Positions 6,518 to 24,591 of a DNA stretch of 25,871 nt are shown here, one piece after another (the first letter of the stretch is position 1; each line of letters begins with the position of its first letter). The notes under the pieces were generated by a model. That model was not told the origin of the DNA. It ran no database searches and was given only the letters and a program-made list of their open reading frames with translations. The position numbers and the translations under genes were made by a program. Source of the DNA: a virus (Duplodnaviria; Caudoviricetes); IMG/VR virus record IMGVR_UViG_3300005404_000026, positions 1-25,871 of that record; one strand, 5' to 3'.

Positions 6518-6523
6518 AAACAC

Positions 6524-6552: not shown

Positions 6553-6569
6553 AGTACTAGGAGTAATAT

Positions 6570-7658: not shown

Positions 7659-7899
7659 ATTTTATCAAAATTTAAATGGTGCAAGATGGGTCGGATTTCT
7701 GATAGCCATCATAAGCTGTTTTATTTTATCGAATGCGAACGTCGAAACACAATGGATAGGCTGGGCCATTGGTTGTGTATCGTGTTCCATGTGGGTATAC
7801 TTTGGATTCAAAGACAAAGATACGCCACGAGCTTTAATGGAAGTAATGTATCTACTAATTTCTATGAGAGCTCTATATAACTGGATTATAGGATACTAA
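7648..7899 (+). CDS. Small three-helix membrane protein (PnuC/SemiSWEET-like half transporter possible)
   Basis: Three hydrophobic segments, ends LYNW; SD GGAG at 7635; start may be 7642. Confidence 0.5.
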   Translation: MKIRFYQNLNGARWVGFLIAIISCFILSNANVETQWIGWAIGCVSCSMWVYFGFKDKDTPRALMEVMYLLISMRALYNWIIGY

Positions 7900-9096: not shown

Positions 9097-9782
9097 TGAG
9101 CTTAATTACAGAAAAGTACGACTACAAAGAAATAAAAAGGCAAAGTGTCGAAGGTAAACGACTATATGCTTGTCCAGACGGTAATGCCGTAGCAAGTGTT
9201 ACAACTATACTAGATGCTACTAAAGATAAAACACACTTAGTAGCTTGGCGTAAAAGAGTTGGAGAAGCAAAAGCAAAAGAGATAACAACAGAAGCCGCTG
9301 GCGTTGGAACTCGTATGCACAAATACTTAGAAGATTATATCGAAAACTGGCCTGCATGGCCTTCTGCTGGGTCTAATCCGTATGCTCAACAAGCACACAA
9401 AATGGCATCACAGATTAGAGAAAATGTTTTAGAAAGTCATGTAACAGAGATATGGGGTAGTGAAGTTAACTTATATCATCCTAAAATTTATGCTGGAACT
9501 ACAGATTTAGTTGGTACTTACGATAACAATCCTGCTATAATGGACTTTAAGCAAACTAATAAACCTAAGAAGAAAGAGTGGGTTGATGATTACTATCTAC
9601 AACTTGTAGCCTATGCTTTAGCACATAACGAAATATACGATACAAATATACAAGAAGGACACATTTTCATGTGTTCTAGAGACCTAGATTACCAACAATT
9701 TGACTTATGGCCTGACGATTTTAAACATTGGGAGTCAAAATGGTGGGATCGAGTCTACCAGTATTACGACAAGTTCGCATAA
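9096..9782 (+). CDS. PD-(D/E)XK exonuclease (MGME1/Cas4-like phage family)
   Basis: SVTTIL, W..RVG, GTRMHKYLE, SEVNL, YAGTTD, IMDFKQ, LQLVAYA. Confidence 0.85.
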   Translation: MSLITEKYDYKEIKRQSVEGKRLYACPDGNAVASVTTILDATKDKTHLVAWRKRVGEAKAKEITTEAAGVGTRMHKYLEDYIENWPAWPSAGSNPYAQQAHKMASQIRENVLESHVTEIWGSEVNLYHPKIYAGTTDLVGTYDNNPAIMDFKQTNKPKKKEWVDDYYLQLVAYALAHNEIYDTNIQEGHIFMCSRDLDYQQFDLWPDDFKHWESKWWDRVYQYYDKFA

Positions 9783-9806
9783 ATATATAAAATAAGGAGT
9801 TTAACA

Positions 9807-11423
9807 GTGGCAGTCGTACAGATATCTAGAATACAAATAAGAAGAGGGCAGAAGAATCAAGGTTCTGGAGTTCCTCAATTATCAGGTGGTGAATTAGGTT
9901 GGGCTGTTGATGCAAGAGAATTATACATAGGTAATGGTTCAGTTGCAGAAGGTGCACCAGCAGTTGGCAACACAAAAATTATTACACAACACGACGACTT
10001 GTTTACATTAGCAGATAGCTACACTTACTTAGGTGGAACAACAGTTCAAACAGGAACAACAGCAACTTCACCAATAAAAAGAACACTACAAGCAAGACTA
10101 GATGAAATAGTAAGCATTAAGTCATTTGGTGGTATCGGAGACGGAACAGATCAAACTGTAGCAATACAAAGAGCTATAGACCAATTATATCTTAATAGTG
10201 CAACTAAAGGTACAGAAGGAAGTAGAGTAAAATTACATTTTCCAGCAGGTGTATATGGAATATCAGGAACAATTTACCTTCCTCCATTTGCTAATTTAAT
10301 AGGCGAAGGTTGGGACAAAACAAAATTTAATATGACCAATAGTGCTTCAGCATTTCAAACTGTTAACAGTAGCAGTACTCCAGGAAGTTATGCTGATGAT
10401 AGTTCTAGTACAACTCTTAACCAAGCATCAGGAATACATTTTTCAGGATTTACAATCGCTACTATATCTACTACAAATCCAGCTATAGTTTTACAGAGTT
10501 GTAAAGAAGGAAACTTTAGTGATATTAAAATTACAGGTCCTTGGACAACAGGTACAGCTATTACTGCAACTAATGCCGCAATTAAAATGGGATCTTTAAG
10601 TACTCTAGTAGGAACACACAAAAATAAATTTGATCACATATCTATAAATGGATTTAGTACAGGAATTGGAAGTGACGACGATGCATACGACAATAACTTT
10701 AATAATTCATTTGTTGCATCTTGTGGACGTGGTGTATACTTTGGAGAAAATACATCTATAGGTTCACAAGGACAAGCAACAGGTCCAAGTAGAAACACAT
10801 TTAGTCAATGTAAATTTGAAGACATTGACAAAGAGGCTATTAATATAATCAAAGGCGTAGACAATATTAGTTCACATAATAAATTTACTGGAGTTGGTAA
10901 TGTTGGCGGAAACGAAGGCAATGCCCAATATCCTGTAATTGATTATGTAACACAAAATAATTCAGTTGAAGACATTTTTTCAAGAACAAACGATTTATCT
11001 AACAACCAAACTTACTTAACATCTTTTCCATACATATCAGAAATTAAAGGCAAAGTTAATGCAAGAATAGGTGGATTCATGTCGCTTAACGTGACAGAGC
11101 AATCATCACCAACTTACTTTTTTAGACTACCAGGCGATGTTTCTAAAACTTATGAAGTTGAATACTATTATAATAGTGGCTTAGTTAACGCACAACGAAG
11201 TGGTAAGATGACGTTTCAGTTAGATACTGGTAATAATACACTAAATTTTATTGACGATCACGAATACCAAGGAGATGCTAATTATGAGACGGCACTCCAG
11301 TTTACAGCCGCTATGGTAAACACAAATGGACAAGTAGGGGTTGACACAATCATAGTTTCTATGTTAAACTCTACTACAAATGATACAGGAAGTTTCAACT
11401 ATAAAATTAAAGTTTTAGGGTAA
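9807..11423 (+). CDS. Virion tail/baseplate protein with pectate-lyase-like beta-helix
   Basis: N-terminal VQISRIQIRRG...GELGWAVD..LYIGNG; VSIKSFGGIGDG.DQTVAIQRAI...FPAGVY beta-helix cap; TAAATA 9780-9785 and SD AAGGAG. Confidence 0.75.
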   Translation: MAVVQISRIQIRRGQKNQGSGVPQLSGGELGWAVDARELYIGNGSVAEGAPAVGNTKIITQHDDLFTLADSYTYLGGTTVQTGTTATSPIKRTLQARLDEIVSIKSFGGIGDGTDQTVAIQRAIDQLYLNSATKGTEGSRVKLHFPAGVYGISGTIYLPPFANLIGEGWDKTKFNMTNSASAFQTVNSSSTPGSYADDSSSTTLNQASGIHFSGFTIATISTTNPAIVLQSCKEGNFSDIKITGPWTTGTAITATNAAIKMGSLSTLVGTHKNKFDHISINGFSTGIGSDDDAYDNNFNNSFVASCGRGVYFGENTSIGSQGQATGPSRNTFSQCKFEDIDKEAINIIKGVDNISSHNKFTGVGNVGGNEGNAQYPVIDYVTQNNSVEDIFSRTNDLSNNQTYLTSFPYISEIKGKVNARIGGFMSLNVTEQSSPTYFFRLPGDVSKTYEVEYYYNSGLVNAQRSGKMTFQLDTGNNTLNFIDDHEYQGDANYETALQFTAAMVNTNGQVGVDTIIVSMLNSTTNDTGSFNYKIKVLG

Positions 11424-11851
11424 TGCTCGAATTAAAATTTGAAGATAAAGTAAAAGTCTGGAAAAACTTACGGGAAACATTAGAATTACACCCAAGACCA
11501 TTCGACGCGGTCTTACAATTTGTTAGAAAACTACCATTATCAGCTAAGAAAAAAACAAATGCATGGGATCCTAAGGCTAAAATAGAACCTTGGCATCTCA
11601 TTGAGAAAACCGAATTTACTGAGTATGAAATTGCACAACTTACGGCATATACTTTACAGTTAACCGATAGGTTTAGCGAAGCTCAAATCGAGATATATAT
11701 CAGTAAAGAGAACAAGAAAAGTAAATTATTATATCTAGTGTATGTGGATAACTTTATTGTAATCGGGTATAACAACGAAGTAACAACAGTTGAGGAACTT
11801 CCCGCAAATGTTATACCACAAAAGATTTACAGTATGCCACCTATACACTAA
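11423..11851 (+). CDS. Hypothetical phage protein
   Basis: TAATG coupling, 142-aa ORF. Confidence 0.65.
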   Translation: MLELKFEDKVKVWKNLRETLELHPRPFDAVLQFVRKLPLSAKKKTNAWDPKAKIEPWHLIEKTEFTEYEIAQLTAYTLQLTDRFSEAQIEIYISKENKKSKLLYLVYVDNFIVIGYNNEVTTVEELPANVIPQKIYSMPPIH

Positions 11852-11876
11852 GTATTACACACAAAGGGAAAGAAGT

Positions 11877-14186
11877 ATGAACACAGACCTCAGCATCATC
11901 AAAAGAAACGGCAAAACTGCACCATTAGATATTCAAAAGATTCACAAAGTAGTAAACTATGCTTGTGAAAACTTAACTGGAGTTTCTAGCAGTTTGGTGC
12001 AAATGAATGCAGGCATACAGTTTGCAGATAAAATGTCGTCAAGAGAGATACAAGACTTATTAATTAGATCAGCTAACGATTTAATTTCGTTAGACCAACC
12101 CAACTATCAATACGTTGCGGCAAGATTATTGCTTTACGGAATTTATAAAGACGTATTTGGTGGATTTGAAAAAGTACCATTACTAGAAATGGTCAAAAGA
12201 AATATTAACCGTTCAGTATACGATGCAGATATATTAGAGAAGTATACTGAAGATGAGTTTGAGCAGATGGAAAAGTATCTCAAACATAATAGAGATGAAA
12301 ATTTTACCTATGCAGGACTAAGGCAAATAGTTGACAAGTACTTGTGCCAAGATAGAAGTACTAGTGAAGTATTCGAGTCGCCACAACACATGTACATGAT
12401 GATTGCGGCTACACTATTCGCTAACTATCCTAAAGAAGATAGAATGTATTATGTAAGGAGATACTACGATGCGACCTCACTTTTTAAAATTAATATCCCA
12501 ACGCCAGTCATGGCCGGTGTCCGCACACCTATTCGACAGTTTGCTTCGTGTGTCCTTGTTGACAGTGACGATACCCTTGATAGTATCTTCGCAAGTGATA
12601 TGTCGATTGGTAGATACACAGCCCAAAGAGCAGGGATCGGAATCAACTCAGGACGTATCAGAGGAATCAATTCGAAAATAAGAGGTGGAGAAGTTGCACA
12701 CACAGGTGTAATTCCGTTTCTTAAAAAATTCGAAGCAACTGTTAGATGTTGCACACAAAATGGAGTAAGAGGCGGTAGTGCTACAGTTCATTTTCCTTTT
12801 TGGCATCAAGAAATTGAAGACATACTTGTCTTAAAAAATAATAAAGGCACTGAAGACAACCGTGTTCGTAAATTGGATTATTCCATTCAACTTAATAAAA
12901 CAATGTACGAACGATTATTAACCCAAGGCGATATAACTCTTTTTTCACCTAAAGATGTTCCAGGCTTATATGAAGCCTACTTTAACGATCAAGAAAAGTT
13001 TAAGGAACTATACGAAAAGTATGAAAAAGATAATAAAGTTAAAAAGAAAGTTATGTCTGCAATGCAACTCTTTTCTGCACTAATTAAAGAAAGAGCAGAA
13101 ACAGGACGTATCTATATAATGAATGTCGATCATTGTAATACACATAGTTCTTTTAAAGATCCTGTATACATGAGTAACTTATGTCAAGAGATTACGTTAC
13201 CTACTAAGCCACTACAACATATTGATGATCCAGATGGAGAAATTGCTTTATGTATTCTTAGTGCAATTAATGTAGGAACTCTAAAAGAATTAGATGACCT
13301 AGAAGAACTAGCTGAATTAGCTGTAAGAGCATTAGACGAGATTATTGATTATCAAAACTATCCTATTAAGGCGGCTGAGATAAGCACAAAAGCTAGACGT
13401 TCACTAGGAATAGGATACATTGGTCTTGCACATTATCTAGCAAAGCATGGTTGTAAGTACTCAGATAAGAAAGCATTAACAAAAGTACACGAACTAACAG
13501 AAGCATTTCAGTTTTATCTTTTGAAAGCAAGTAATAAACTTGCACAAGAAAAAGGAAAATGTGACTACTTTGATCGCACTAAATACAGTGATGGTATACT
13601 GCCAATTGACACTTATAAGAAGGAGTTGGACGAAGTATGTTCAATAACATTAAAATATGACTGGGATTATCTTCGCGAGGCTATTGGACAACACGGTCTT
13701 AGGCACTCAACATTGTCCGCACAAATGCCTTCGGAGAGCAGTTCCGTTGTGTCGAATGCCACAAACGGTATTGAGCCTCCTAGAGGATTCTTGTCCGTTA
13801 AGAAAAGTAAAAAAGGGCCTCTTAAGCAAATTGTTCCGCAGTATACGACTTTAAAAAATCATTACACACTACTTTGGGATATGCCTAGCAATGATGGCTA
13901 TATTAATATAGTGTCTGTAATGCAAAAGTTCTTTGATCAAGCTATTAGTGGTAACTGGAGTTATAATCCAACCCACTTTGACAATAACGAAGTACCTATG
14001 AGTATAATGATGAAAGATCTGTTAAACACATACAAGTATGGTTGGAAAACATCATACTACCAAAATACATATGACTATAAAACAGATGGCGAGGTGGATG
14101 AGCCAGCCGAGAAGATAGTTGAGCCACAAGAAAACGAATTACGTGTGGACAACGAAGAAGAAGAATGTGAAGCTTGTACAATATAG
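11877..14186 (+). CDS. nrdA: Ribonucleotide reductase class Ia alpha subunit
   Basis: N-terminal ATP cone, PTPVMAGVRT..RQFASC, SNLCQEI, PSESSS, KTSYYQ, C-terminal CEAC; start corrected to ATG 11877. Confidence 0.97.
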   Translation: MNTDLSIIKRNGKTAPLDIQKIHKVVNYACENLTGVSSSLVQMNAGIQFADKMSSREIQDLLIRSANDLISLDQPNYQYVAARLLLYGIYKDVFGGFEKVPLLEMVKRNINRSVYDADILEKYTEDEFEQMEKYLKHNRDENFTYAGLRQIVDKYLCQDRSTSEVFESPQHMYMMIAATLFANYPKEDRMYYVRRYYDATSLFKINIPTPVMAGVRTPIRQFASCVLVDSDDTLDSIFASDMSIGRYTAQRAGIGINSGRIRGINSKIRGGEVAHTGVIPFLKKFEATVRCCTQNGVRGGSATVHFPFWHQEIEDILVLKNNKGTEDNRVRKLDYSIQLNKTMYERLLTQGDITLFSPKDVPGLYEAYFNDQEKFKELYEKYEKDNKVKKKVMSAMQLFSALIKERAETGRIYIMNVDHCNTHSSFKDPVYMSNLCQEITLPTKPLQHIDDPDGEIALCILSAINVGTLKELDDLEELAELAVRALDEIIDYQNYPIKAAEISTKARRSLGIGYIGLAHYLAKHGCKYSDKKALTKVHELTEAFQFYLLKASNKLAQEKGKCDYFDRTKYSDGILPIDTYKKELDEVCSITLKYDWDYLREAIGQHGLRHSTLSAQMPSESSSVVSNATNGIEPPRGFLSVKKSKKGPLKQIVPQYTTLKNHYTLLWDMPSNDGYINIVSVMQKFFDQAISGNWSYNPTHFDNNEVPMSIMMKDLLNTYKYGWKTSYYQNTYDYKTDGEVDEPAEKIVEPQENELRVDNEEEECEACTI

Positions 14187-14198
14187 GAAGGAAGTTTA

Positions 14199-15302
14199 AT
14201 GGCGAAGACCGTATTCAATAAAGATAAGATTGATTTTACAAAGAGCACAATGTTTTTTGGCCCTGATCAAAATACACAAAGATATGATGTATTCAAGTTT
14301 CCGGAGTTCGAAAAACTTAACCAAACTATGCTAGGTTACTTTTGGAGACCTGAAGAAGTTAGTTTGCAAAAAGACAGAGCAGATTATGCTAACTTTCGAC
14401 CAGAGCAAAAACATATTTTTACTGCTAACCTAAAATACCAAACATTGTTAGATAGTGTTCAAGGCAGAGGTCCTAGTTTAGCATTTCTACCATACGTTTC
14501 AATTCCAGAACTAGAAGGCTGTATTGTTACATGGGACTTTTTTGAAACAATTCATTCACGTTCTTATACACACATTATTAAAAATGTTTATCCAGATCCA
14601 TCTGAAGTATTTGATACTATTTTGGACGATAAAGAAATTCTAAAAAGAGCTCAATCTGTAACCAAAAACTATGATGCATTTACATTAGCGGCAGAAGATT
14701 GGTTTCAACGTAAGCAAGGATCAATGCGTGAAGTCAAAAAGAAGCTCTACTTGGCTATGATGAATGTAAATATACTTGAAGGTTTACGTTTTTATGTTTC
14801 ATTCGCTTGTACCTTTTCTTTTGCAGAATCTAAAAACATGGAAGGTTCAGCAAAGATTGTATCACTAGTTGCAAGAGATGAAGCTACACATTTAAACTTA
14901 ACTACACACGTTTTGAAGAATTGGCAAAAAGGATTAGATGATCCAGAAATGGCAAAGATAGCAAAGGAGTGCGAAGAAGAAGTTTATAATATGTGGAGAG
15001 AATGTGTAGATGAAGAAAAGGCTTGGGCAAATCATTTGTTCAAGGATGGAGCAATTATAGGATTGAATGAAGAACTATTACATCACTATGTTGAATTCAT
15101 TGCTAACAAGAGATTGAAAGCACTTGGTTTAAAAACTATCTATAACAGATCTTTAAACAATAACCCACTACCGTGGACACAACATTGGCTTTCGAGTGCA
15201 GGATTACAAGTTGCACCACAAGAAACTGAAGTTGAAAGTTACATAATTGGTGGTATTAAACAAGACGTAGACGAAGATGTTTTGAAAGGATTCACTCTTT
15301 AG
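14199..15302 (+). CDS. nrdB: Ribonucleotide reductase class Ia beta subunit
   Basis: FWRPEE, LDSVQGR, ETIHSRSY, EGLRFY, RDEATH, VAPQETE..SY. Confidence 0.97.
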   Translation: MAKTVFNKDKIDFTKSTMFFGPDQNTQRYDVFKFPEFEKLNQTMLGYFWRPEEVSLQKDRADYANFRPEQKHIFTANLKYQTLLDSVQGRGPSLAFLPYVSIPELEGCIVTWDFFETIHSRSYTHIIKNVYPDPSEVFDTILDDKEILKRAQSVTKNYDAFTLAAEDWFQRKQGSMREVKKKLYLAMMNVNILEGLRFYVSFACTFSFAESKNMEGSAKIVSLVARDEATHLNLTTHVLKNWQKGLDDPEMAKIAKECEEEVYNMWRECVDEEKAWANHLFKDGAIIGLNEELLHHYVEFIANKRLKALGLKTIYNRSLNNNPLPWTQHWLSSAGLQVAPQETEVESYIIGGIKQDVDEDVLKGFTL

Positions 15303-15303
15303 A

Positions 15304-15585
15304 ATGAATAAACAAGAAGTTACAATTTACTCTAAGACACATTGCCCTAGTTGTCTTAAAGCAAAAGCACAATTTGATAAACTAAACGTTCCTTATACAG
15401 AACATTTGCTTGGAACAGATATTCAACCAGGCGAATTGTTCACTCTTTTCGAAGAAAAAGGACTACCACAGCCAAGAACAGCCCCGCAAATCTTTATAGG
15501 TGATACTTATATAGGAGGCTGGGAACAACTTTGTGAATATATTGAAAACACAGGGTTCAACGGCTCCGGTTACTCAGTAGGATAA
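15304..15585 (+). CDS. nrdC: Glutaredoxin
   Basis: YSKTHCPSC...RTAPQIFI...IGG. Confidence 0.9.
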   Translation: MNKQEVTIYSKTHCPSCLKAKAQFDKLNVPYTEHLLGTDIQPGELFTLFEEKGLPQPRTAPQIFIGDTYIGGWEQLCEYIENTGFNGSGYSVG

Positions 15586-15594
15586 AATAAAAAT

Positions 15595-15894
15595 ATGTTA
15601 GTAGAAAATCCAGATTACAAAGTAAACGATACAATAACTTTTAAAACCCAAGCTGGGGAAGAAGTTGTGTGCCGTGTAACACAGATAAACAAAGATTCTA
15701 TTAAAGTCAAGAAGCCAATGGCTTTAACTATGTTGAAAGACGGAATTGGAATGGTTCCATTCTCTTTAACAGTCAGCATGGATACTGAAATGCTAATTAA
15801 CCTTAGTAACGTTGTTTTTATTGCGAAGACAGCAGATAAAACGGCTAAGCAGTATATAGAATCAACAACAGGGCTTAAACTAGCTGTCAATTAA
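15595..15894 (+). CDS. Conserved phage protein, possible Sm/SH3-like beta-barrel
   Basis: TFKTQAGEEVV...KPM...GMVPF...YIESTTGL pattern. Confidence 0.55.
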   Translation: MLVENPDYKVNDTITFKTQAGEEVVCRVTQINKDSIKVKKPMALTMLKDGIGMVPFSLTVSMDTEMLINLSNVVFIAKTADKTAKQYIESTTGLKLAVN

Positions 15895-15912
15895 AGTAGA
15901 AGGAGATAAATT

Positions 15913-16092
15913 ATGTCAGACATACATGAACAGATCAAATCACAATATGAGGCTTACTTAAAGGAAGCCGAGTCGTTTGATACTAAAGGTGTAAAAGCAT
16001 CTGCCGCAAGAGCAAGAAAAGCTCTAGGGGAGATGGGGAAATTAGCAAAAGCAAGAAGAGCTGAGATCCAAGATAAAAAGAACAATATGTAA
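15913..16092 (+). CDS. Histone H1-like (Hc1-family) 59-aa protein (not in ORF track)
   Basis: SD AAGGAG; F..KGVKASAARARKALGEMGKLAKARRAEIQDKKN. Confidence 0.75.
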   Translation: MSDIHEQIKSQYEAYLKEAESFDTKGVKASAARARKALGEMGKLAKARRAEIQDKKNNM

Positions 16093-16133
16093 TAAATATA
16101 GTTATGGCGGGACCTGTTGTTTCGCCATAACTA
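16093..16133 (+). promoter_or_regulatory. Late-type promoter plus 11-bp perfect hairpin in the csp leader
   Basis: TAAATA 16093-16098; TAGTTATGGCG (16099-16109) / CGCCATAACTA (16123-16133). Confidence 0.6.
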
Positions 16134-16157
16134 ATAACACAAGGGCTAGAAAGAAAC

Positions 16158-16379
16158 ATGGCACAACAAGGTAAACTTAAATGGTACAATCACGTGAAAG
16201 GCTACGGCTTTATTTCTCGTGACGATGGACAAAAGGATTTGTTCGTTCACGTATCAGAATTCAGAAAAGCAGGAATTAAAAAGATTGTTGAAGGTATGCA
16301 CATTGAATATACCATTACCGATCACGCCGACAAACCTGTCGCTACCGATATTCTAATAATTCACGTTCCAGAAAATTAG
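16158..16379 (+). CDS. csp: Cold-shock domain protein
   Basis: GKLKWYN..KGYGFI (RNP1), DLFVHVSE (RNP2). Confidence 0.93.
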   Translation: MAQQGKLKWYNHVKGYGFISRDDGQKDLFVHVSEFRKAGIKKIVEGMHIEYTITDHADKPVATDILIIHVPEN

Positions 16380-16394
16380 ACGATAAATAGTTTT

Positions 16395-16616
16395 ATGACG
16401 GATGACTTAACAGAAATGTCTTCTGAGGAGAGAGTCAGCAATTTAAAACTAAGGATGTCGTTATTCAAGACAAAGTATCCAGAACTTTTTCCGGAAGTAA
16501 TTATAAAGGAGGACCCGCCGAGTGAGCCTAAACCCGTTAGAGATATTGCATCCAGACTGGCTTCTTTTCGCACTACTGATAAAACACGCACTAGCAGATT
16601 TAATTCTACAGAGTAG
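16395..16616 (+). CDS. Hypothetical small protein, probably leaderless; 3' part overlaps the next gene
   Basis: TAAATA 16384-16389 ends 5 nt before the ATG. Confidence 0.45.
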   Translation: MTDDLTEMSSEERVSNLKLRMSLFKTKYPELFPEVIIKEDPPSEPKPVRDIASRLASFRTTDKTRTSRFNSTE

Positions 16617-16914
16617 ATATTCTCCTGCACACGGCGACAAGATAGACTTAAAGACACCAAAAGGATATTATCATGCACTCGATCACGGGGTCTTAACATT
16701 TATTAGTTGTCTTTTCTTTATCGACTACAAATTAGCAATCATTATTGGAATAGTTGATACTATTTTACACTTCACCATAGATTACACCAAAACTCGTTAT
16801 GTACGTACGAATGATATCAAACAAGATACCAAACCATTTTGGATTATTCAAGGAATTGACCAAATGGCTCATTATTCTTGCTACATGGCCTACACTCTTT
16901 ACTTGACATTGTAG
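16522..16914 (+). CDS. DUF3307-like membrane protein
   Basis: KHALADLILQ, HALDHG, HFTIDYTK, FW...GIDQMAH; SD AAGGAGG before GTG. Confidence 0.8.
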   Translation: MSLNPLEILHPDWLLFALLIKHALADLILQSRYSPAHGDKIDLKTPKGYYHALDHGVLTFISCLFFIDYKLAIIIGIVDTILHFTIDYTKTRYVRTNDIKQDTKPFWIIQGIDQMAHYSCYMAYTLYLTL

Positions 16915-16933
16915 TTAAAGTATGTTATAAATA
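16903..16933 (+). promoter_or_regulatory. Composite tmRNA promoter (sigma70 with extended -10, overlapping late consensus)
   Basis: TTGACA 16903-16908, N17, TGnTATAAA; the -10 continues as TATAAATA 16926-16933. Confidence 0.8.
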
Positions 16934-17013
16934 TACTTGCAACGTTGAAGCAATTCGAACGCTGTACTGGACTCGGGTGCGATACCCGACACCTCCACCA
17001 TAAGGACACTACG

Positions 17014-17181
17014 ATGGCAAAGTATAGACGTAAAGGAAGAAAAGCTAGTAAACGTACAGTAAGATGTACACTTTGTACTACCTATCGCTGGATGGGGAAT
17101 ACTAAGGAAAGATTTAGATTTTCAGATAGACGTCGAAAAGAGCAGTTTAAAGTTAGTCGGAATAGTTTAGTGTCTTTATGA
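17014..17181 (+). CDS. 55-aa basic CxxC protein encoded inside the tmRNA intervening segment
   Basis: SD AAGGA 17002-17006, ATG 17014, TGA 17179-17181; MAKYRRKGRKASKRTVRCTLCTTYRWMGNTKERFRFSDRRRKEQFKVSRNSLVSL. Confidence 0.7.
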   Translation: MAKYRRKGRKASKRTVRCTLCTTYRWMGNTKERFRFSDRRRKEQFKVSRNSLVSL

Positions 17182-17269
17182 TGGGGGTGAAATAGGATCG
17201 ACAGGCAGGTAATAGGAAAGTGGAGTTGTCCGGATCTAAGCTCGGTTAACGCGAAGACACGTTACAGAT

Positions 17270-17359
17270 GCAAACGATAATGTATCAAACGTATTTTCTT
17301 TCGTAGACTTCGGTTCACTTAAGAACTACGTAAATGAGGATTACGCCTTAGCGGCGTAA
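17270..17359 (+). other. tmRNA tag reading frame: ANDNVSNVFSFVDFGSLKNYVNEDYALAA*
   Basis: ANDN start, YALAA end; stop inside hairpin ATTACGCC/GGCGTAAT. Confidence 0.9.
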
Positions 17360-17420
17360 TTGCTCGGGGTTGGCAACTTACCTAGCAACAGAAAAGTTGC
17401 ACTTTAAAATTGGAGGTAAC

Positions 17421-18257
17421 ATGAAGATTGGTGTAAGAGGAAGTAAACTAGCTCTAGCATACGCCGATAAAGTCGTTGCACTACTTCCGCAGGCATGGCC
17501 CGAAATAAAAATAACCGAAATAAAAACACAAGGCGATATTAAAGCTGACCAACCTATACACGAAATGGGTGGTAAAGGTGTATTTGTTTCTGCTATAGAA
17601 AAACAATTAATAGACAAAAAAATAGACTTAGCAATACATTCGTTTAAAGACTTACCTGCACAGATGGACGAACGTCTTGAAATAGTTGCTGTACTTGAAA
17701 GACAAGATCCTAGAGATTGTTATATAGGTGTACTATTTCCTAATGCAAAAGTTGGAACAGGCTCGCCTAGAAGAATAGCAGAACTAACAGAAAACTTTAA
17801 TGTTCCTTTTAATGTACGACCTATTAGAGGAAACATTGATACACGACTACGTAAATTAGACGAAGGAATGTACGATGCAATTATACTTGCAGTAGCAGGG
17901 TTAGAAGCATTAGGATTAGAAAACAGGATTACTAAAAGATTTCCTTTAGATAAGATGTTACCGTGTGTTGGACAAGGAGTTATAGCAATACAAATGCGTA
18001 AAGACCATCCTGACCTTAGATCTTTGCAAAAGATACTAAATCATTGGAATACGTACTATTCAGTAATGAGCGAACGTAAAATGCTACAAGTTATAGATGG
18101 CGACTGTCATACAGCCGTTGGAGCAATATCGAGTATTGTAGGAGACTGTTTGATGCTAAAATCGATAAATTATACTAATAATAAACAATATGAAGCAACA
18201 GGAAAGCTAATGGACTATATACAAATTGGTGAGGAAGTTGGTAATAATATAAAATGA
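17421..18257 (+). CDS. hemC: Porphobilinogen deaminase (hydroxymethylbilane synthase)
   Basis: GVRGSKLAL, TQGD, GGKGVF, DLAIHSFKDLP, GTGSPRR, RGNIDTRL, GQG, cofactor Cys in DGDCHT; SD GGAGGT before ATG 17421. Confidence 0.93.
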   Translation: MKIGVRGSKLALAYADKVVALLPQAWPEIKITEIKTQGDIKADQPIHEMGGKGVFVSAIEKQLIDKKIDLAIHSFKDLPAQMDERLEIVAVLERQDPRDCYIGVLFPNAKVGTGSPRRIAELTENFNVPFNVRPIRGNIDTRLRKLDEGMYDAIILAVAGLEALGLENRITKRFPLDKMLPCVGQGVIAIQMRKDHPDLRSLQKILNHWNTYYSVMSERKMLQVIDGDCHTAVGAISSIVGDCLMLKSINYTNNKQYEATGKLMDYIQIGEEVGNNIK

Positions 18258-19228
18258 ATATAAAATTTAAAAATGCTTGTAAACGGATATCACAAAAAAC
18301 GCCACCTATATGGTTTATGCGTCAAGCTGGAAGATATCATCAACACTATCGTGATTTAAAATTAAAATACACATTTGAAGAATTATGTAAGACTCCAGAG
18401 TTAGCTGGAGAAGTTGCACTAGGTCCAATCGATGAATTTGATTATGACGTTGCAATACTTTTTTCTGATATACTATTTCCTTTAGAAGGCTTAGGAATTC
18501 CTTTAAAGTTTGATCCAGGTCCTAAATTTGCACATAACTTAACATTAGAAAATGCAGACGAACATAGTAACATTCCTGAAGCATTAAGGTTTATGTCATT
18601 CCAAAGAGATGCAATAATAACAACAAGAGCTATGCTACCCAAACATAAAAGTTTAATAGGCTTTGTGGGAGGTCCATGGACACTAATGAATTACGCCGTT
18701 GGCGATTCGAGAGTAACTGATGAATTTAAACTAGACTATATGAAGTCTATTCTTATACCTTTACTAGTTCGTAATATAACATTACAACTTGATGCTGGTG
18801 CAGAAAAGGTAATGGTATTCGATAGCGGATTAAAGAATATGTCTTCGTCTTTTTTTAATAAAAAGTATTCTCCTTTGTTAATGTCTTTAGCCATGCCACA
18901 GACAGCTTACTATAGTAAGAACTTACCCAGGAAATGCATTGACAAAGTAGTACAAGGGGACTGGGGTGGCATTGGCATTGATAGTAAAGTTGATATAACT
19001 CATGCATTAAAAACTTTTAAGAAAGGGTTTGTTCAAGGTAACTTTGACGAAGAAATGATGTTACTACCTAAACATAAGTTTATGTATCAGATAGAAAAGT
19101 ATTGTGACGAAATGTCTAGAAATGATACTACTGGTTGGGTATGTGGTTTAGGACACGGCATTAATAAAGAAACTCCAGAAGAACATGTTCACTTGTTTAT
19201 AGAAACAGTAAGAAATCGTTTATCTTGA
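18254..19228 (+). CDS. hemE: Uroporphyrinogen decarboxylase
   Basis: WFMRQAGRY, AILFSDIL, LIGFVGGPWTL..Y, FDS, QGNFD, LGHGI; ATGA-type overlap with hemC. Confidence 0.93.
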   Translation: MNIKFKNACKRISQKTPPIWFMRQAGRYHQHYRDLKLKYTFEELCKTPELAGEVALGPIDEFDYDVAILFSDILFPLEGLGIPLKFDPGPKFAHNLTLENADEHSNIPEALRFMSFQRDAIITTRAMLPKHKSLIGFVGGPWTLMNYAVGDSRVTDEFKLDYMKSILIPLLVRNITLQLDAGAEKVMVFDSGLKNMSSSFFNKKYSPLLMSLAMPQTAYYSKNLPRKCIDKVVQGDWGGIGIDSKVDITHALKTFKKGFVQGNFDEEMMLLPKHKFMYQIEKYCDEMSRNDTTGWVCGLGHGINKETPEEHVHLFIETVRNRLS

Positions 19229-19369
19229 TTTCTTTTGCCAGTACTTACTTTTTCGCATGCCTAGATAGTGTTCACCAGGTTCGTAATCCCATCTGTGTCC
19301 ATGATGTCCTCTGAAATCAGCATACCACATTCTTAAACGTACAATTATTTTTCTTACACCTAAGCTCAC
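19220..19369 (-). CDS. Hypothetical 49-aa protein (not in ORF track)
   Basis: GTGA coupling to 19366-19554; MSLGVRKIIVRLRMWYADFRGHHGHRWDYEPGEHYLGMRKSKYWQKKSR. Confidence 0.6.
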   Translation of the reverse strand: MSLGVRKIIVRLRMWYADFRGHHGHRWDYEPGEHYLGMRKSKYWQKKSR

Positions 19370-19554
19370 TGATATCCTATCTGTCTCCATGGAATAGGAT
19401 TTCCATCTTGATCCATTATAGGTTCGCCGTTAATAGTACCGCCCATGAGAGCACCACCAGTTTGTCTGTAGTACTTACAAGGCTTAACTTCAACACCATC
19501 CCTCATCTTTTTATGATGAACTGTCTTTACACCTTTACTATGTTTTATAGCCAT
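19366..19554 (-). CDS. Hypothetical 62-aa protein
   Basis: SD AAGGA and TAAATA upstream on the minus strand. Confidence 0.65.
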   Translation of the reverse strand: MAIKHSKGVKTVHHKKMRDGVEVKPCKYYRQTGGALMGGTINGEPIMDQDGNPIPWRQIGYQ

Positions 19555-19573
19555 TCGCTTGATCCTTTTCGGT

Positions 19574-19595
19574 TATTTACCATTTTAGCTAAATA
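19574..19595. promoter_or_regulatory. Divergent pair of late-type promoters
   Basis: TATTTA 19574-19579 (TAAATA on -) and TAAATA 19590-19595 (+) between divergent genes. Confidence 0.6.
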
Positions 19596-19624
19596 TATTA
19601 GTAGTTAATGATAAGGAGAAATGT

Positions 19625-19819
19625 ATGGCGGGACAAGCAGATGATCAAGGTAAGCTAGAAGTAGCTGTACGAGTATTAGGTAACGAATTAATAGCTTTAA
19701 AAATGACCGTAGACGATTTTAAAATGAAATGGCTAGTACTTGGAGTAGTAACCATTTGTGCATTGGGTTGGGCGGCAAGTGTCTTTGGACCTGAGCTAAT
19801 GAATATGTTTGGAGAATAG
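19625..19819 (+). CDS. Small membrane protein
   Basis: SD AAGGAG; C-terminal hydrophobic helix. Confidence 0.7.
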   Translation: MAGQADDQGKLEVAVRVLGNELIALKMTVDDFKMKWLVLGVVTICALGWAASVFGPELMNMFGE

Positions 19820-19820
19820 C

Positions 19821-20267
19821 ATGTATGAATATAAATCAAAAATATTAAGAGTTGTTGACGGAGATACTGTTGATGTTGACATTGATTTAGGATTTGGTGT
19901 TTGGATGCACAAAGAACGTGTAAGAATGATGGGCATTGATACTCCTGAGTCTAGAACAAGAGATAAAGTAGAGAAGAAATTTGGATTGGCAAGTAAAGCA
20001 AGACTTAAAGAACTTTTACCAACTGGTTCAATACAAATTCTTAAAACAGAAATTGATAAATCTGGAGAAGACAAGAAAGGCAAGTTTGGTAGAATACTAG
20101 GGGATTTCCACGTATACTATGGCCCAGAAGATAGGCAACTTGGCTGTACTAAGATTCTTATTAAAGAAGGACATGGAGTAGAATACCATGGTCAATCAAA
20201 AGATGATATACAAGAGAAACACTTGGCTAATAGAGAAAGGCTTCTTAAAGAAGGCATTGTTAGCTAA
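19821..20267 (+). CDS. Thermonuclease (SNase-like)
   Basis: RVVDGDT, RVRMMGIDTPESRT, KGKFGRILG; start ATG 19821 after GGAG. Confidence 0.9.
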   Translation: MYEYKSKILRVVDGDTVDVDIDLGFGVWMHKERVRMMGIDTPESRTRDKVEKKFGLASKARLKELLPTGSIQILKTEIDKSGEDKKGKFGRILGDFHVYYGPEDRQLGCTKILIKEGHGVEYHGQSKDDIQEKHLANRERLLKEGIVS

Positions 20268-20561
20268 ATGAAATCTATAGCAATTATTTTTCTTGCTACT
20301 CTTATATACACTAACGATCCGAGTAAAACTGAAAACTTATATAGTTGGCAGTTACAATTTCATTCTTACGACAAATGCACTGAGTTCTACAATAAGTATC
20401 AAGCAGAGATATTAAACGGCTTACTTGATCATGGTAGAGAAAAATACAATGCAGTTATGGAAATAGATTATTTGGCGTGTGGAATGGTTGAAATGGATTT
20501 TCAAAAAAACAGCAATCCTAAAGTAATAGGACAAAAAGAAATGTATAAACGAGTAAACTAA
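20268..20561 (+). CDS. Small exported protein with two Cys
   Basis: Hydrophobic N-terminus; FHSYDKCTEF ... YLAC. Confidence 0.55.
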   Translation: MKSIAIIFLATLIYTNDPSKTENLYSWQLQFHSYDKCTEFYNKYQAEILNGLLDHGREKYNAVMEIDYLACGMVEMDFQKNSNPKVIGQKEMYKRVN

Positions 20562-20759
20562 ATGTTTTGGGGAACTGGTGTAGCGAAAGCAAACAAATCA
20601 GATTGTGAAACTTGCCGTATAGTAGTAAGTCAAGAAGGTATAGAAATAGATTCAAGTACAGGAAATATAGTAACTGAAGCTATAGTTCTTTCAGGTATTG
20701 TACTTGTTGTAGCATTACTATACATAGGTAAAAAATGGATAGATAAGAGGATGAAATGA
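20562..20759 (+). CDS. Small membrane protein
   Basis: CxxC, C-terminal TM then KKWIDKR. Confidence 0.55.
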   Translation: MFWGTGVAKANKSDCETCRIVVSQEGIEIDSSTGNIVTEAIVLSGIVLVVALLYIGKKWIDKRMK

Positions 20760-21025
20760 TTGTTAATTGGTTTTTAGTAGCAGTTATGAGTATGTCTTAT
20801 ACTCAACAAACAACTAATTTATATATTTTTACTGACCCATCTTTTACATCATCAGAACAATGTATTGAATTTGTAAAGCAACCAGAAAATGGACAAATGA
20901 TTGCTTGGAAACTTAAAAATGAATTTCCATTACAAACAATGCAAAATGTTTACTGTGTGCCCGAAAACGAAATGGAAAAGATATTAGAAAAGTCTAAGCC
21001 TGCCCAAAAAGAACTGAATATCTAG
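20756..21025 (+). CDS. Small exported protein with two Cys
   Basis: Hydrophobic N-terminus; FTSSEQCIEF ... VYC. Confidence 0.55.
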   Translation: MIVNWFLVAVMSMSYTQQTTNLYIFTDPSFTSSEQCIEFVKQPENGQMIAWKLKNEFPLQTMQNVYCVPENEMEKILEKSKPAQKELNI

Positions 21026-21034
21026 CCAAAACAC

Positions 21035-21063
21035 TTGACGTCCTCCACAACTTGTAATATATT
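21035..21063 (+). promoter_or_regulatory. Sigma70-type promoter
   Basis: TTGACG-N17-TATATT with upstream AAAACAC shared with the promoter at 6524. Confidence 0.7.
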
Positions 21064-21104
21064 AATACTATTATGTTTATAAAAGATAGACTAGTAACAA
21101 GTAT

Positions 21105-21129
21105 AAGAGCTCTTTCGAGCTCTTTTTTT
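21105..21129 (+). terminator. Intrinsic terminator/attenuator-like hairpin
   Basis: AAGAGCTC-TTTC-GAGCTCTT then T-run. Confidence 0.75.
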
Positions 21130-21144
21130 AATAAAGGAGGCAAT

Positions 21145-21405
21145 ATGCCAATCAATAATAACAAAGGCTCTACTTACTTTAGAGTAGGTTCTCAGAAGCA
21201 ACAAATCCTAGCGAAATACTGGGGTACTGGTAAGACTTTTACATTAGAAGGTCTAACAGATAAATTGGATGCTATGTCACCTGGCGCAAGAGTATGGGAG
21301 ATCAGAGAAGCTGGTTTTAATGTTAAATCAAAACCAATTTACACTGGCGAAGTAGGAAGACCTGCTAACGAATACTCAATCTCAAGAAGAAGAGTATTTG
21401 CTTAA
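21145..21405 (+). CDS. Winged helix-turn-helix DNA-binding protein
   Basis: SQKQQIL....GKTFT...SPGARVWEIREAGFNV...GRP..EY; SD AAGGAGG. Confidence 0.7.
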   Translation: MPINNNKGSTYFRVGSQKQQILAKYWGTGKTFTLEGLTDKLDAMSPGARVWEIREAGFNVKSKPIYTGEVGRPANEYSISRRRVFA

Positions 21406-21414
21406 TCAAAACTC

Positions 21415-21443
21415 TTGACAAATAAATCAACTCCTGTTATAAT
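21415..21443 (+). promoter_or_regulatory. Sigma70-type promoter with extended -10
   Basis: TTGACA-N17-TATAAT, preceded by TGn. Confidence 0.85.
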
Positions 21444-21476
21444 GAGTTATTAACTTTCAATAGCAGGAGTTTTTTT

Positions 21477-21929
21477 ATGACTATGCATTTAGAAAGAGGG
21501 CTAACAACTCTCAATACTCGTAAGCCAAAAAAGAAGAAATTATCATTGGCTCAAATTGATAAGTACAGTAAGCAACTAAAGATGCACAATAAAGATATGC
21601 GTCGATTAGGTTGTCACGATTTGCAAATGGATTTGGACACGTTCATTGCATATATCAGAGGAGAACTCAAACCAAGGGCAACTTCAATAAACAGAACCGA
21701 GCCAATTTATACTCGTCCACAGCAAGGTACTGATAGAATTGTCGAGACTAAAAACTTGGATCAATTTGCACCCGCATTAAAGAAAGATTCACTTCAATAT
21801 ACTGGAACCAGACGACTAGTGGGGATAGCCACCATGCATAAGTCAAATATGGTTCCTATTTTTGCGGATGACGATGATAAAACAGGCAGTAAACAGGCAA
21901 CAGACATAGCACAAATGAGGAGGAACTAA
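21477..21929 (+). CDS. Conserved hypothetical phage protein
   Basis: YTG..LVGIATMHKSNMVPIF...MRR motif; SD AGGAG. Confidence 0.7.
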   Translation: MTMHLERGLTTLNTRKPKKKKLSLAQIDKYSKQLKMHNKDMRRLGCHDLQMDLDTFIAYIRGELKPRATSINRTEPIYTRPQQGTDRIVETKNLDQFAPALKKDSLQYTGTRRLVGIATMHKSNMVPIFADDDDKTGSKQATDIAQMRRN

Positions 21930-22549
21930 TGTTAGCATTTTACATTTTAATGGCAGAGCTTAAATATTATATGAGGTTAATGTTTAAGTTAGCTTCGACA
22001 TTGTTTTGTATATTGTTTATGGTCCCGATGACGTATGCGGGTGCAGTAACTTTACAAGGCGCAGTTGAAGGAGAACTATACACATCGGAAACTCATCCAG
22101 AATTATACTGTTTGGCGGCAAACATTTATTTTGAAGCCAAGTCGGAACCAGTAGCTGGACAGTTTGCCGTATCCGACGTTGTTTTAAATAGAGTAAACGA
22201 TGCTCGGTACCCCAATACAATATGTGAAGTAGTATTGGACGGACCAACTCGTGAATCTTGGAAAACAAAGCAACACAAAGATTTGCCCGAAGACAAGAGA
22301 GTCTTCAATCCAATAAGAAACAAGTGTCAATTTTCTTGGTACTGTGATGGCAAGTCAGATACAATTAGAGATAACGATGCTTGGCGTAAAGCACAAGAAA
22401 TTGCTTATAGAATTGTAAACGAAAACAAGTTTAGAGGGATTACAGAAGGAGCAACTCACTACCATGCTACTTATGTAAGTCCAAGGTGGGCACCTCAACT
22501 TGACTTAGTCGGTAGAATAGGAACACATATATTTTATAGATGGCCATAA
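21929..22549 (+). CDS. Cell wall hydrolase, SleB/Hydrolase_2 family
   Basis: CLAANIYFEAKSE...VVLNRV...PNTICEVV...CQFSWYCDG...GATHYHA.YV.P.W...IGTHIFY; true start may be a downstream ATG. Confidence 0.9.
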   Translation: MLAFYILMAELKYYMRLMFKLASTLFCILFMVPMTYAGAVTLQGAVEGELYTSETHPELYCLAANIYFEAKSEPVAGQFAVSDVVLNRVNDARYPNTICEVVLDGPTRESWKTKQHKDLPEDKRVFNPIRNKCQFSWYCDGKSDTIRDNDAWRKAQEIAYRIVNENKFRGITEGATHYHATYVSPRWAPQLDLVGRIGTHIFYRWP

Positions 22550-23211
22550 AACTTTGGAAAAAGATACCGGTTAAGATACGACGAACATTTTACTTCTTAT
22601 TGTTTTGGATTTTATCCATAGTCATATCTTATGGTTCAGGAACTTTTCAACCGAACTACCTGGTATTAAACAAAATTACAAAAGATGCATTTGCTCAAGT
22701 TCAATCTGAATATTTAGATTACGGATTGTACGAGCCAGAGATGATATACGACACAAACGAACAGTTCGTTACAGCCGTTAATAAATGTATCAGTTATGTT
22801 AACTTATCTACACCACCAGATGAAAGAGTCCATGCACATATTATTATTGCTATGGCTATCTTAGAAACTGGTTATGGTAATAGTAGGTTTGCTAAAGAAG
22901 GTAACAACTTATTTGGTATTAGAACGTGGGACGAAAAGGCACCACAACTAAAACCAAAGGGCAATCCAGATGCTAAATGGGGAGTTAAAGTATACATTAC
23001 TAAATGTAAGTCCGTTAAAGATATGATAAGAATCATTAACGAACTTGATGTATATAAAAAGTTTCGAGAAGAAAGAGCAAATCAATTAGCAACAGGAACT
23101 CCAAACCTTGGAGAAATGATTAATCATTTAAGTCCTTGGAGCACCAATCCAAGATACACAAGACTAGTAATATCAAAGGTTAATCAAATACAAGAACTTT
23201 TGAGCAACTAG
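22540..23211 (+). CDS. Glucosaminidase (GH73, Bax/FlgJ-like) with N-terminal membrane anchor
   Basis: AMAILETGYGNSRFAKEGNNLFGIR ... WSTNPRY. Confidence 0.85.
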   Translation: MAIKLWKKIPVKIRRTFYFLLFWILSIVISYGSGTFQPNYLVLNKITKDAFAQVQSEYLDYGLYEPEMIYDTNEQFVTAVNKCISYVNLSTPPDERVHAHIIIAMAILETGYGNSRFAKEGNNLFGIRTWDEKAPQLKPKGNPDAKWGVKVYITKCKSVKDMIRIINELDVYKKFREERANQLATGTPNLGEMINHLSPWSTNPRYTRLVISKVNQIQELLSN

Positions 23212-23226
23212 GTTAACCAAAAGTTC

Positions 23227-23255
23227 TTGACATTCCCAGTCAATGACAGTATAAT
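23227..23255 (+). promoter_or_regulatory. Sigma70-type promoter
   Basis: TTGACA-N17-TATAAT exact consensus. Confidence 0.85.
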
Positions 23256-23311
23256 GTAAACATAATGATAGAAATCATTTTAATAACTAATGCACACAGA
23301 AAGGCAATATA

Positions 23312-23827
23312 ATGTATAAAGGCATTTTAAGACTAGGAGCAATAATTGGGGTAATGGGTATGCTAAATGCATGTTCATCTTATACAACTATTGCAGAACG
23401 TGATACTTATGCACAACCTAAATGGTATGCAAAATGTGCCGAAACTGGATCAAAAGGCTGGTTTTGGTGGAAACAAGATTATGTATTCTCTTGTGGAGCA
23501 GGTGTAAGTATTTTTGAACAGGCCGCTGAAGAGCAGATGTATGCTATTGCAATGAATAACTTTGCAAAAAGAATTAATAGTACAGTAAACAGTGAAACTA
23601 AAATTAACTTTAAAAATAAGTCAGGTGCTGAAACTAAAAACACTACGACTTTTATAAGTTATAAAGTTGCTGACACTAAAATTCGAGAGCACGTTGCTAA
23701 AGAAACTGGTACATACAAGTACCAAGGTAAAACTTATACTTTTGTTAAGTTAAGCATGGAAAAAGAAATCTTCGATGCCTTAATAGCAGAAGCAAAATCC
23801 ACTGACGCAATTAAACTGGCGAACTAA
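23312..23827 (+). CDS. Lipoprotein (LPP20-like)
   Basis: Signal peptide with lipobox LNAC; PKWY motif. Confidence 0.7.
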   Translation: MYKGILRLGAIIGVMGMLNACSSYTTIAERDTYAQPKWYAKCAETGSKGWFWWKQDYVFSCGAGVSIFEQAAEEQMYAIAMNNFAKRINSTVNSETKINFKNKSGAETKNTTTFISYKVADTKIREHVAKETGTYKYQGKTYTFVKLSMEKEIFDALIAEAKSTDAIKLAN

Positions 23828-23828
23828 G

Positions 23829-24164
23829 ATGCGGAATTTAATCTTAATGGCAGGAGCAATCGCCACACTATCGGCTTGCTCCTCTCACAACAACCATCCA
23901 ACAATGGCTCAGTTTAAACCACAGTATTGTTATCAAACTACAACCATTAATACACAAAATGGTAATAGTGTTAATAGTAAAGGTGTAACTGAGTGTACGG
24001 ATAATCCGAAAAATAAACATTTCTTAGCATATAGTGATATTGCTAAAGATTGCAGGGAGTACTGGTATGATATTTGGCTTAATGGAAAAGCAGTTAAACA
24101 ACGTGGCTACGTTTGTCAAAAACTTAATGGCGAATGGGAAATCGTTAGCCATCCTTATAACTAG
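23829..24164 (+). CDS. Lipoprotein
   Basis: Lipobox LSAC; C-terminal CREY...RGYVCQ..NGEWEIV. Confidence 0.7.
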   Translation: MRNLILMAGAIATLSACSSHNNHPTMAQFKPQYCYQTTTINTQNGNSVNSKGVTECTDNPKNKHFLAYSDIAKDCREYWYDIWLNGKAVKQRGYVCQKLNGEWEIVSHPYN

Positions 24165-24567
24165 CATATTATTTTTAACAGCCTGTCAAACAGGTACACA
24201 ATTTCATCATACGAGTCATAGTACAATAGCAAGTACGGAAAAGTACTATCACCCAGGGAATAGTACTATAACAGTTGCTATGAATGCTATTAAATGGAAT
24301 GCATCTATGATGAACGACTATGATAGAAAGCAACAAGAAAATGCAGTTTTCTTTGCATTAAATAACTTAAAGACAGGCGAAGTAACCAGATGGTATAATG
24401 GTAATACAGGTGCAAGAGGAGCAGTTAAAGTGTCTATGACGTATCCACAAGGAAGTGGCTACTGTAGGGTTTTAATGAGTCAAATTGTTTATAATAACAG
24501 AACAAGAGACTTTTCCGAGACAGCTTGTATTAACAGTACTGATAACACCTGGCAGTTTGTCCGATAA
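24127..24567 (+). CDS. Lipoprotein, RT0821/17-kDa surface-antigen-like domain
   Basis: Lipobox LTAC from ATG 24127; AL...TGEVTRWYNGNTGARG...YCR...TAC......W. Confidence 0.7.
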   Translation: MANGKSLAILITSILFLTACQTGTQFHHTSHSTIASTEKYYHPGNSTITVAMNAIKWNASMMNDYDRKQQENAVFFALNNLKTGEVTRWYNGNTGARGAVKVSMTYPQGSGYCRVLMSQIVYNNRTRDFSETACINSTDNTWQFVR

Positions 24568-24591
24568 ATACATAACTTAATAAGGACAACA

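Follow-up and report, generated by a model that had tools for sequence, protein, structure and literature searches.

The window analyzed here, 25,871 nt of DNA that make up one entire virus record (IMGVR_UViG_3300005404_000026), is from an uncultured T4-like marine phage and contains a permuted transfer-messenger RNA (tmRNA) gene, in which the acceptor (3′) piece precedes the coding (5′) piece. The 182-nt spacer between the two pieces holds a conserved gene for a basic peptide with a CxxC motif, one of at least 20 families carried as cargo in such spacers, and the tmRNA precursor appears to act as a messenger only during its own transcription; we assign this reading as a whole a probability of roughly two in three. 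Two-piece tmRNA spacers are regarded as RNA to be thrown away, and any gene located in one is hidden by annotation. In aquatic phages it appears to be a swappable protein-coding slot, such that the precursor of a stable RNA doubles as a messenger, with expression likely limited by a race between ribosome loading and closure of a precursor helix. The window adds an unnamed, widespread family of basic peptides, which is a fair, though not a favored, candidate for a new translation factor.

Architecture of the permuted tmRNA gene

Two Rfam models match the window above gathering score, RF01849 (96.9 bits) at 16899-17403 and RF04321 (94.1 bits) at 16939-17359, with the CCA end at 17000 and the mature 5′ G at 17183. 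Alanine identity features include G3:U70, discriminator A, CCA, and a tag frame ending in hydrophobic Ala-Ala. ARAGORN run on the window gave no call for a permuted tmRNA gene. The features of the locus are as follows.

16904..16934, + strand: promoter-like TTGACA-N17-TATAAA, from a regular-expression reading of the sequence, under the promoter part of RF01849; putative function
16927-16934, + strand: T4 late-type TATAAATA overlapping the promoter-like site, from a regular-expression reading
16939..17000, + strand: tmRNA acceptor piece with helix-2 strand, T arm, acceptor 3′ strand, and CCA, from the start of RF04321 and of an RNA-library contig at 16939
17001..17182, + strand: intervening spacer (cargo slot), 182 nt, from sequence and Rfam, covered without mismatch by RNA-library contigs from two studies
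16999..17011, + strand: 5′ arm of the closing helix, from folding, holding the Shine-Dalgarno (SD)-like AGGA (17003-17006)
17014..17181, + strand: gene for the 55-aa basic CxxC peptide of an unnamed family, from the open reading frame (ORF), a homologue profile, and the ratio of replacement to synonymous differences (pN/pS)
17168..17180, + strand: 3′ arm of the closing helix, from folding, providing the final codons and the TG of the stop
17183..17403, + strand: tmRNA coding piece with acceptor 5′ strand (G3 opposite U70), D loop, tag frame, and 3′ helix, from Rfam
17270..17359, + strand: tag reading frame, 29 aa, starting AND and ending YALAA, from sequence analysis

The promoter-like site at 16904..16934 is not listed by a strict sigma-70 scan; the T4 late promoter consensus is given in the accessible text of PMC9004378. 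The tag has a hairpin-like insert and is roughly double the 10-15 aa that ARAGORN calls for tags at other loci, and a long tag similar to it is found at locus L156 (L numbers are our locus labels).

A selected protein gene fills the spacer

As a preliminary description of the locus had claimed, the 182-nt spacer of this permuted tmRNA contains an SD and a 55-codon ORF (AGGA at 17003-17006, ATG at 17014, TGA at 17179-17181), and counting confirms 19 Arg/Lys, 3 acidic residues (Asp/Glu), and a single CxxC (C18xxC21). Dinucleotide shuffles of the spacer of L084, which is identical to that of the window, yield an ATG frame of such length in 0 of 200 cases. A seven-sequence profile retrieves 92 related proteins, and a profile of those 92 retrieves 310 protein clusters at E<=0.01. 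The family motifs are a basic arm, CTxCT, and RWxGN; residues C18, C21, G28, and N29 show no variation across the 92 members, and K5, R9, R14, T19, T22, R25, W26, and R33 show almost none. Loci drawn from viral contigs, metagenomes (the best 80 of 109), and GTDB assemblies (9 loci) supplied 153 distinct peptides, of which 152 were analyzed after one containing X was dropped.

Purifying selection, which the preliminary description had named as a check, is borne out: pN/pS is 0.12-0.35 in all six pairs of nested copies L233/L253/L265/L288, with intact frames, and 0.31 for the window versus L301, these values being uncorrected, with synonymous sites near saturation in distant pairs. The spacer ORF is a protein gene under selection. 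A silent passenger, taken up whole and left untranslated like the ORF of the Coxiella 23S rRNA intervening sequence (IVS), could be tolerated because the spacer is discarded; the SD is buried in both the precursor and the excised spacer, the IVS ORF is apparently not made in vivo according to the part of PMC4990558 available, and the window's own lineage offers few changes for a test of selection (1 synonymous; 1 synonymous and 1 replacement). However, in the second subfamily the nested copies keep their frames intact while differing at 39-67% of synonymous and 6-14% of replacement sites, and pN<pS holds in all nine multi-member cargo families, leaving this explanation highly improbable.

The spacer as an exchangeable cargo slot

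The 5′-end pattern of alpha-type tmRNAs was examined in 120 of an estimated 1200 viral stretches, and spacers were called in 114, of which 109 are distinct. An ATG frame fills at least 70% of the spacer in 39 of the 49 distinct spacers of >=105 nt, of which three or four calls are doubtful, and some of the viral contigs may hold host DNA. These 39 ORF-filled spacers represent 20 families by BLAST clustering (two of them both DUF6356), and pN<pS in 42 of 42 within-family cargo pairs. Among spacers of 50-104 nt such fill is found in 3 of 30, none with an SD. The spacer is a general exchangeable cargo slot for unrelated small genes, and the layout is not peculiar to the CxxC family. The only alpha-type locus retrieved that carries this family is L084, a near-identical copy of the window locus, and the mature tmRNAs closest to the window's have an empty 29-nt spacer (L156), other cargo (L113), or an empty 43-nt spacer (L127, which has three neighbor genes in common with the window, 66-82%). 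Free-standing relatives of DUF6356 cargo and of hydrophobic cargo lie within the window itself, at 3787-3987 and 19625-19819.

The cultured phage Melnitz (MZ577095) has a 142-nt spacer (L179:2370-2511) with a 54-codon frame that is absent from its record, where SsrA only is shown; the frame ends inside the mature tmRNA and bears a weak likeness to the cargo of L121. In Alphaproteobacteria (151 genomes, 146 over the cut-off), the 147 listed full-model matches, one of them from an unpublished genome that no conclusion relies on, span 181-343 nt versus 421 in the window, and the 39 loci measured, including those with the nine longest spans, contain three spacers of 105-133 nt. One of the three has a 38-codon ATG frame without SD and an insert that by eye is palindrome-like, which we take to resemble rickettsial palindromic elements; the bacterial 133-nt spacer of L524 (G064:C37) contains a palindrome-like insert that is open in two frames.

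Other spacers differ in content. The basic cargo ORF of L113 (L113:1857-2000) is of another family, with weak matches to phrog_16066 and phrog_5780, and has no stop within the spacer, such that processing would render its mRNA non-stop. The spacers of L106, L122, L166, L132, and L112 contain two overlapping frames, each with an SD-like site, the upstream one short and the other a conserved frame of 38-44 aa. Some spacers of 50-160 nt (e.g., L062, L071, L082, L086, L097, and L135) are stem-closed, more GC-rich, and non-coding, with inner structure; stem-closed non-coding spacers could be small RNAs released by tmRNA processing.

The closing helix and SD accessibility

Folding confirms the helix of the preliminary description, in which 16999-17011 pairs with 17168-17180 over 13 bp with one G:U (region z = -3.2; 1 of 200 shuffles equally good). 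The claim that this helix buries both the SD and the stop codon holds for the SD and in part for the stop, of which only the T and G are paired, with the CA of CCA. The computed cost of opening the SD is 12.2 kcal/mol in the full precursor, 7.6 kcal/mol in the ribonuclease P (RNase P) product, 6.5 kcal/mol in the excised spacer, and 1.3-1.8 kcal/mol in nascent RNA without the 3′ arm. An SD that is open in nascent RNA and subsequently closed by the helix suggests that ribosomes load during transcription of ∼155 nt. A single promoter, as read from the sequence, would drive the acceptor piece, spacer, and coding piece; by computation the SD would be open until the 3′ arm is made ∼155 nt later, whereupon closure of the helix would extend the acceptor stem, stop initiation, and convert the RNA to a processing substrate. 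Release of the spacer by RNase P and 3′ trimming is established for two-piece tmRNA and presumed for the window locus, and each tmRNA produced would be accompanied by a small, fixed amount of peptide. Given a gene under selection and a helix predicted to close off its SD, a link between translation and tmRNA maturation is likely; the coupling proposed in the preliminary description is to this extent retained, without the dedicated self-regulating module that accompanied it.

The helix and stop codon are not specific to coding spacers. Covariation of the 13-bp stem had been suggested as a check, and the arms do co-adapt, since in 78 spacers of >=50 nt the mean pairing energy is -12.5 kcal/mol with an arm's own partner versus -4.7 kcal/mol with swapped partners; the stem is nevertheless generic, as spacers of 50-104 nt, mostly non-coding, pair at least as well (-14.3 versus -11.4 kcal/mol). 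Of 46 spacers measuring 29-104 nt, 36 have TGA at positions -4 to -2. The stops of the 39 cargo ORFs (13 at -1, 17 inside the mature tmRNA, and 9 before the arm) are spread as expected if frames run into any stop the junction offers. The closing helix serves processing generally, and the ORF borrows its stop from the conserved TGA of this helix. Since helix and TGA also close non-coding spacers, they do not support a dedicated rescue module.

RNase P cleavage at the mature 5′ end is established for tRNA-like precursors. A cut at 17183 would keep the stop, falling one base 3′ of it, and after cleavage two unpaired bases are 3′ of the helix, whose loss would remove the A of TGA. A non-stop mRNA from the window locus is possible via two-base trimming or a cut within the helix.

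Location of family members and entry into spacers

Among the 152 members, 7 are nested inside a tmRNA spacer, 8 partly coincide with the 5′ piece of a tmRNA, 21 are within ∼3 kb of a tmRNA, 16 are in or at tRNA arrays, and 100 are without tmRNA or tRNA array in the flanking DNA examined, which is short for many; five placement calls were made by hand from Rfam matches. The co-location inside ssrA spacers envisaged in the preliminary description is accordingly found for the seven nested members, in three groups, while most of the family is free-standing. The first group is the window's lineage (L001-L003). In the second (L301/L302), the closest nested relative of the window's gene, a 337-nt spacer contains two genes in tandem, the CxxC family gene and then L106-type hydrophobic cargo, and the family gene ends at a stop of its own, 157 nt short of the spacer end. 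The third (L233/L253/L265/L288) is of another subfamily, in other tmRNAs, with the stop again at -1. In trees, nested members branch among free-standing relatives, and a single clade of six nested rows is rejected (p-AU 0.011 in the approximately unbiased test; 30 rows, 52 columns), this clade having been chosen after a first tree had been viewed. Together these results point to at least two captures, and on the evidence of the tree the CxxC family entered tmRNA spacers at least twice, the genes probably being drawn from a pool of small genes around tmRNA loci.

The location of the family might also be taken to indicate that the peptide has a different role alongside tmRNA-SmpB or the ribosome, as a modulator or chaperone, and that co-expression is the reason for its repeated placement on or beside the tmRNA transcript. 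The 36 of 152 members that are nested in, overlap, or lie within ∼3 kb of a tmRNA, in alpha-type, beta-type, and other tmRNA backgrounds and with at least two captures, are consistent with such a role. A tmRNA is present near 14 of 42 family motif loci (2 kb each side) versus 1 of 52 loci of a widespread phage nuclease motif, where 80 listed loci of each scan were examined. However, control cargo families, each nested more than once, behave similarly, with a tmRNA nearby in 27 of 42 (hydrophobic) and 5 of 20 (DUF6356) versus 17 of 51 for the CxxC family, all three having been seeded from spacer cargo. Moreover, tRNA arrays are not enriched near the family (4 of 42 versus 5 of 52 nuclease-motif loci), and no tRNA or tmRNA was called within 2.5 kb of any of the nine copies in bacterial genome assemblies, four of these copies (L172-L175, from four Tepidisphaerales assemblies) lying between sufB-like and sufC-like genes named by eye. 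Such a partnership is unlikely.

Several tmRNA genes lack a promoter directly before the 5′ piece and have an upstream gene ending in helix 2 (L004-L013, L022, L045, L205, L010, L015, and L215); the 5′ end of such helix-2-overlapped tmRNAs must be processed or remain joined to mRNA.

Possible functions of the peptide

Neither the peptide nor the family has a fitting family in Pfam, PHROGs, or NCBIfam; PDB sequences give no match to the family at E<=10, tblastn of 50,697 cultured-phage records gives no match to the peptide, and the ESM Atlas contains unnamed clusters only, with no named match. The best of the weak, scattered library matches, zf-C17orf113 (15 of 92 members at E>=0.004), was judged to be CxxC noise, and a third Zn ligand at CxxC+3 was rejected because that position is Y in 42, H in 40, F in 25, and L in 19 of the 152 members. 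The AlphaFold2 model is mostly unstructured with one C-terminal helix (predicted local distance difference test, pLDDT, 71; predicted template-modeling score, pTM, 0.38). Foldseek searches with this model gave 0 matches in PDB and one in BFVD (E 7.8), and the best VIA-align Z is 2.1, all uninformative; a predicted homodimer with Zn scores 0.02, which is evidence neither way. The composition suggests, at somewhat less than even odds, that the peptide binds RNA, possibly the ribosome, via its N-terminal Lys/Arg arm and RWxGN, with CxxC as a metal or redox site. The suf-like surroundings of L172-L175, and the position of the family gene after an sdhB-like gene (named by eye) in L178, are a possible Fe-S link for CxxC.

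The preliminary description had proposed a self-regulating rescue module, in which processing yields a non-stop mRNA whose product is tagged by the tmRNA, such that a factor resembling ArfA or BrfA accumulates when trans-translation fails. In its favor, the peptide is small and very basic, the stop would disappear if the two unpaired bases left by RNase P cleavage were removed, the second nested subfamily has its stop at the same place, in two more clades the stop is in tmRNA helix 2 with an ORF-proximal promoter in L013, L045, and L205, the motif loci are found near tmRNA more often than those of the nuclease motif (14/42 versus 1/52), and the accessible text of PMC8012679 expects more unrelated small rescue factors. 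Against it, neither the peptide, the 92-member profile, nor any member resembles ArfA or BrfA in sequence, as the preliminary description had itself observed for the peptide, and the Pfam and NCBIfam matches of the 92 members, like the PDB search, include no ArfA family. KH occurs within the last 25 residues in only 9 of 152 members and is absent from the window peptide, and the basic arm that is conserved is at the N terminus. Within the final 75 coding bases, terminators occur in 3 of 150 members versus 3 of 128 controls, and strong hairpins in 12 of 150 versus 12 of 128 (p = 0.78).

Genomic placement is also unfavorable to the module: 100 of the 152 members have neither tmRNA nor tRNA array in the DNA examined, the L301 gene stops well within its spacer, and for hydrophobic cargo a tmRNA is nearby in 27 of 42 cases. 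Unrelated long genes end in helix 2 at L010, L015, L021, L215, and L250, an overlap found in 7 of 69 alpha-type loci, and among 35 other genes, 12 have their end within the following tRNA. Stops that fall within tRNAs (4 members) or within tmRNA helix 2 (8 members) were likewise rejected as non-stop wiring, since unrelated genes behave alike. With the generic helix and TGA and 20 families in the slot, the self-regulating module is improbable and was not upheld. The broader proposal that the CxxC family is an unrecognized rescue or trans-translation factor of phages and scattered bacteria, wired repeatedly onto the tmRNA transcript (spacer twice, 5′ leader twice), with processing producing a non-stop mRNA and a self-tagged passenger, is decidedly unlikely.

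Expression traces in RNA libraries

Small portions of the region are present in five RNA runs. Three runs, from two studies, have contigs that show no difference from the spacer; two contigs bridge CCA into the spacer with >31 nt on each side, and one starts at 16939. Of 30 bins across 6000-25871, run X1 covers 28 and run X3 covers 20, indicating that the phage was present in those samples. For the flanking genes and the greater part of the coding piece, runs X1-X3 contain no identical contig, gaps that prove nothing. The spacer contigs are consistent with precursor RNA but are not proof of it.

Certain observations weigh against the interpretation of the precursor as a transient messenger for exchangeable cargo. 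The RNA libraries may contain DNA, and strand, level, and ends are not readable from the contigs. The SD opening costs describe equilibrium folding of truncated RNAs, not kinetics, and the excised spacer, at 6.5 kcal/mol, might also be translated. The reading of peptide function is drawn from composition alone, and the family is tmRNA-proximal in about seven clades with different tmRNA types, a pattern that accidental capture fits less easily.

Genomic context of the window

The window contains class Ia ribonucleotide reductase genes, with NrdB 63% identical to T4-like cyanophage proteins, and genes for an exonuclease and an endolysin-like protein. Directly downstream of the tmRNA are hemC and hemE (17421-19228), and PEPCK and NifU genes are at 7900-9096 and 6570-6926. 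Close upstream are genes for an Hc1-like histone protein (15913-16092) and a cold-shock domain protein (16158-16379).

Comparison with known systems

Small rescue factors, exemplified by ArfA, BrfA, and ArfT (PMC8012679, in the text available), are, like the window peptide, small and basic, and a non-stop mRNA form is conceivable for the window gene. The text available for the same paper describes a KH motif in the C-terminal mRNA-channel tail common to ArfA and BrfA. In contrast, the window family has no sequence similarity to these factors, its basic stretch is N-terminal, its core is CxxC, the window peptide has no KH, and no pre-stop terminator or hairpin is found family-wide.

The protein-coding IVS of 23S rRNA (Coxiella, S23p) is similar to the window spacer in that an ORF is located in a segment excised from a stable-RNA precursor (PMC4990558, as far as accessible). 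The Coxiella IVS, however, has one ORF type and is described in that text as selfish, decaying, and probably untranslated, whereas the phage slot holds many families under purifying selection; membership in the selfish rRNA-type IVS class was rejected given 20 cargo families and pN<pS. Homing-endonuclease genes in tmRNA group I introns likewise place a protein gene in a removed part of pre-tmRNA, and these introns are self-splicing, are located in the T loop, and encode a mobility enzyme (PMC11915505, accessible portion), whereas the window spacer, with no such Rfam match, is not an intron, and its cargo is not a nuclease.

The closest known system is the permuted tmRNA gene itself, known from Alphaproteobacteria and from marine myophages such as Melnitz (RF01849, RF04321), with the same gene order, G3:U70, CCA, T arm, and tag ending ALAA. 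The literature searched, which covered few subscription journals, included no paper on protein genes in tmRNA spacers. In their accessible portions, PMC11915505 describes the spacer as missing from mature tmRNA and names as its cargo only tRNA-Ala and a repetitive element, PMC9004378 describes two-piece tmRNA in Melnitz and other aquatic phages without the word 'intervening', and PMC10117765 describes only the tag ORF of the Sinorhizobium tmRNA. The window differs from known permuted tmRNA in having a 182-nt spacer with a selected protein gene, compared with measured alphaproteobacterial spacers of up to 133 nt, and as a permuted tmRNA gene whose spacer is exchangeable and codes for protein it is a new variant on the established two-piece tmRNA.
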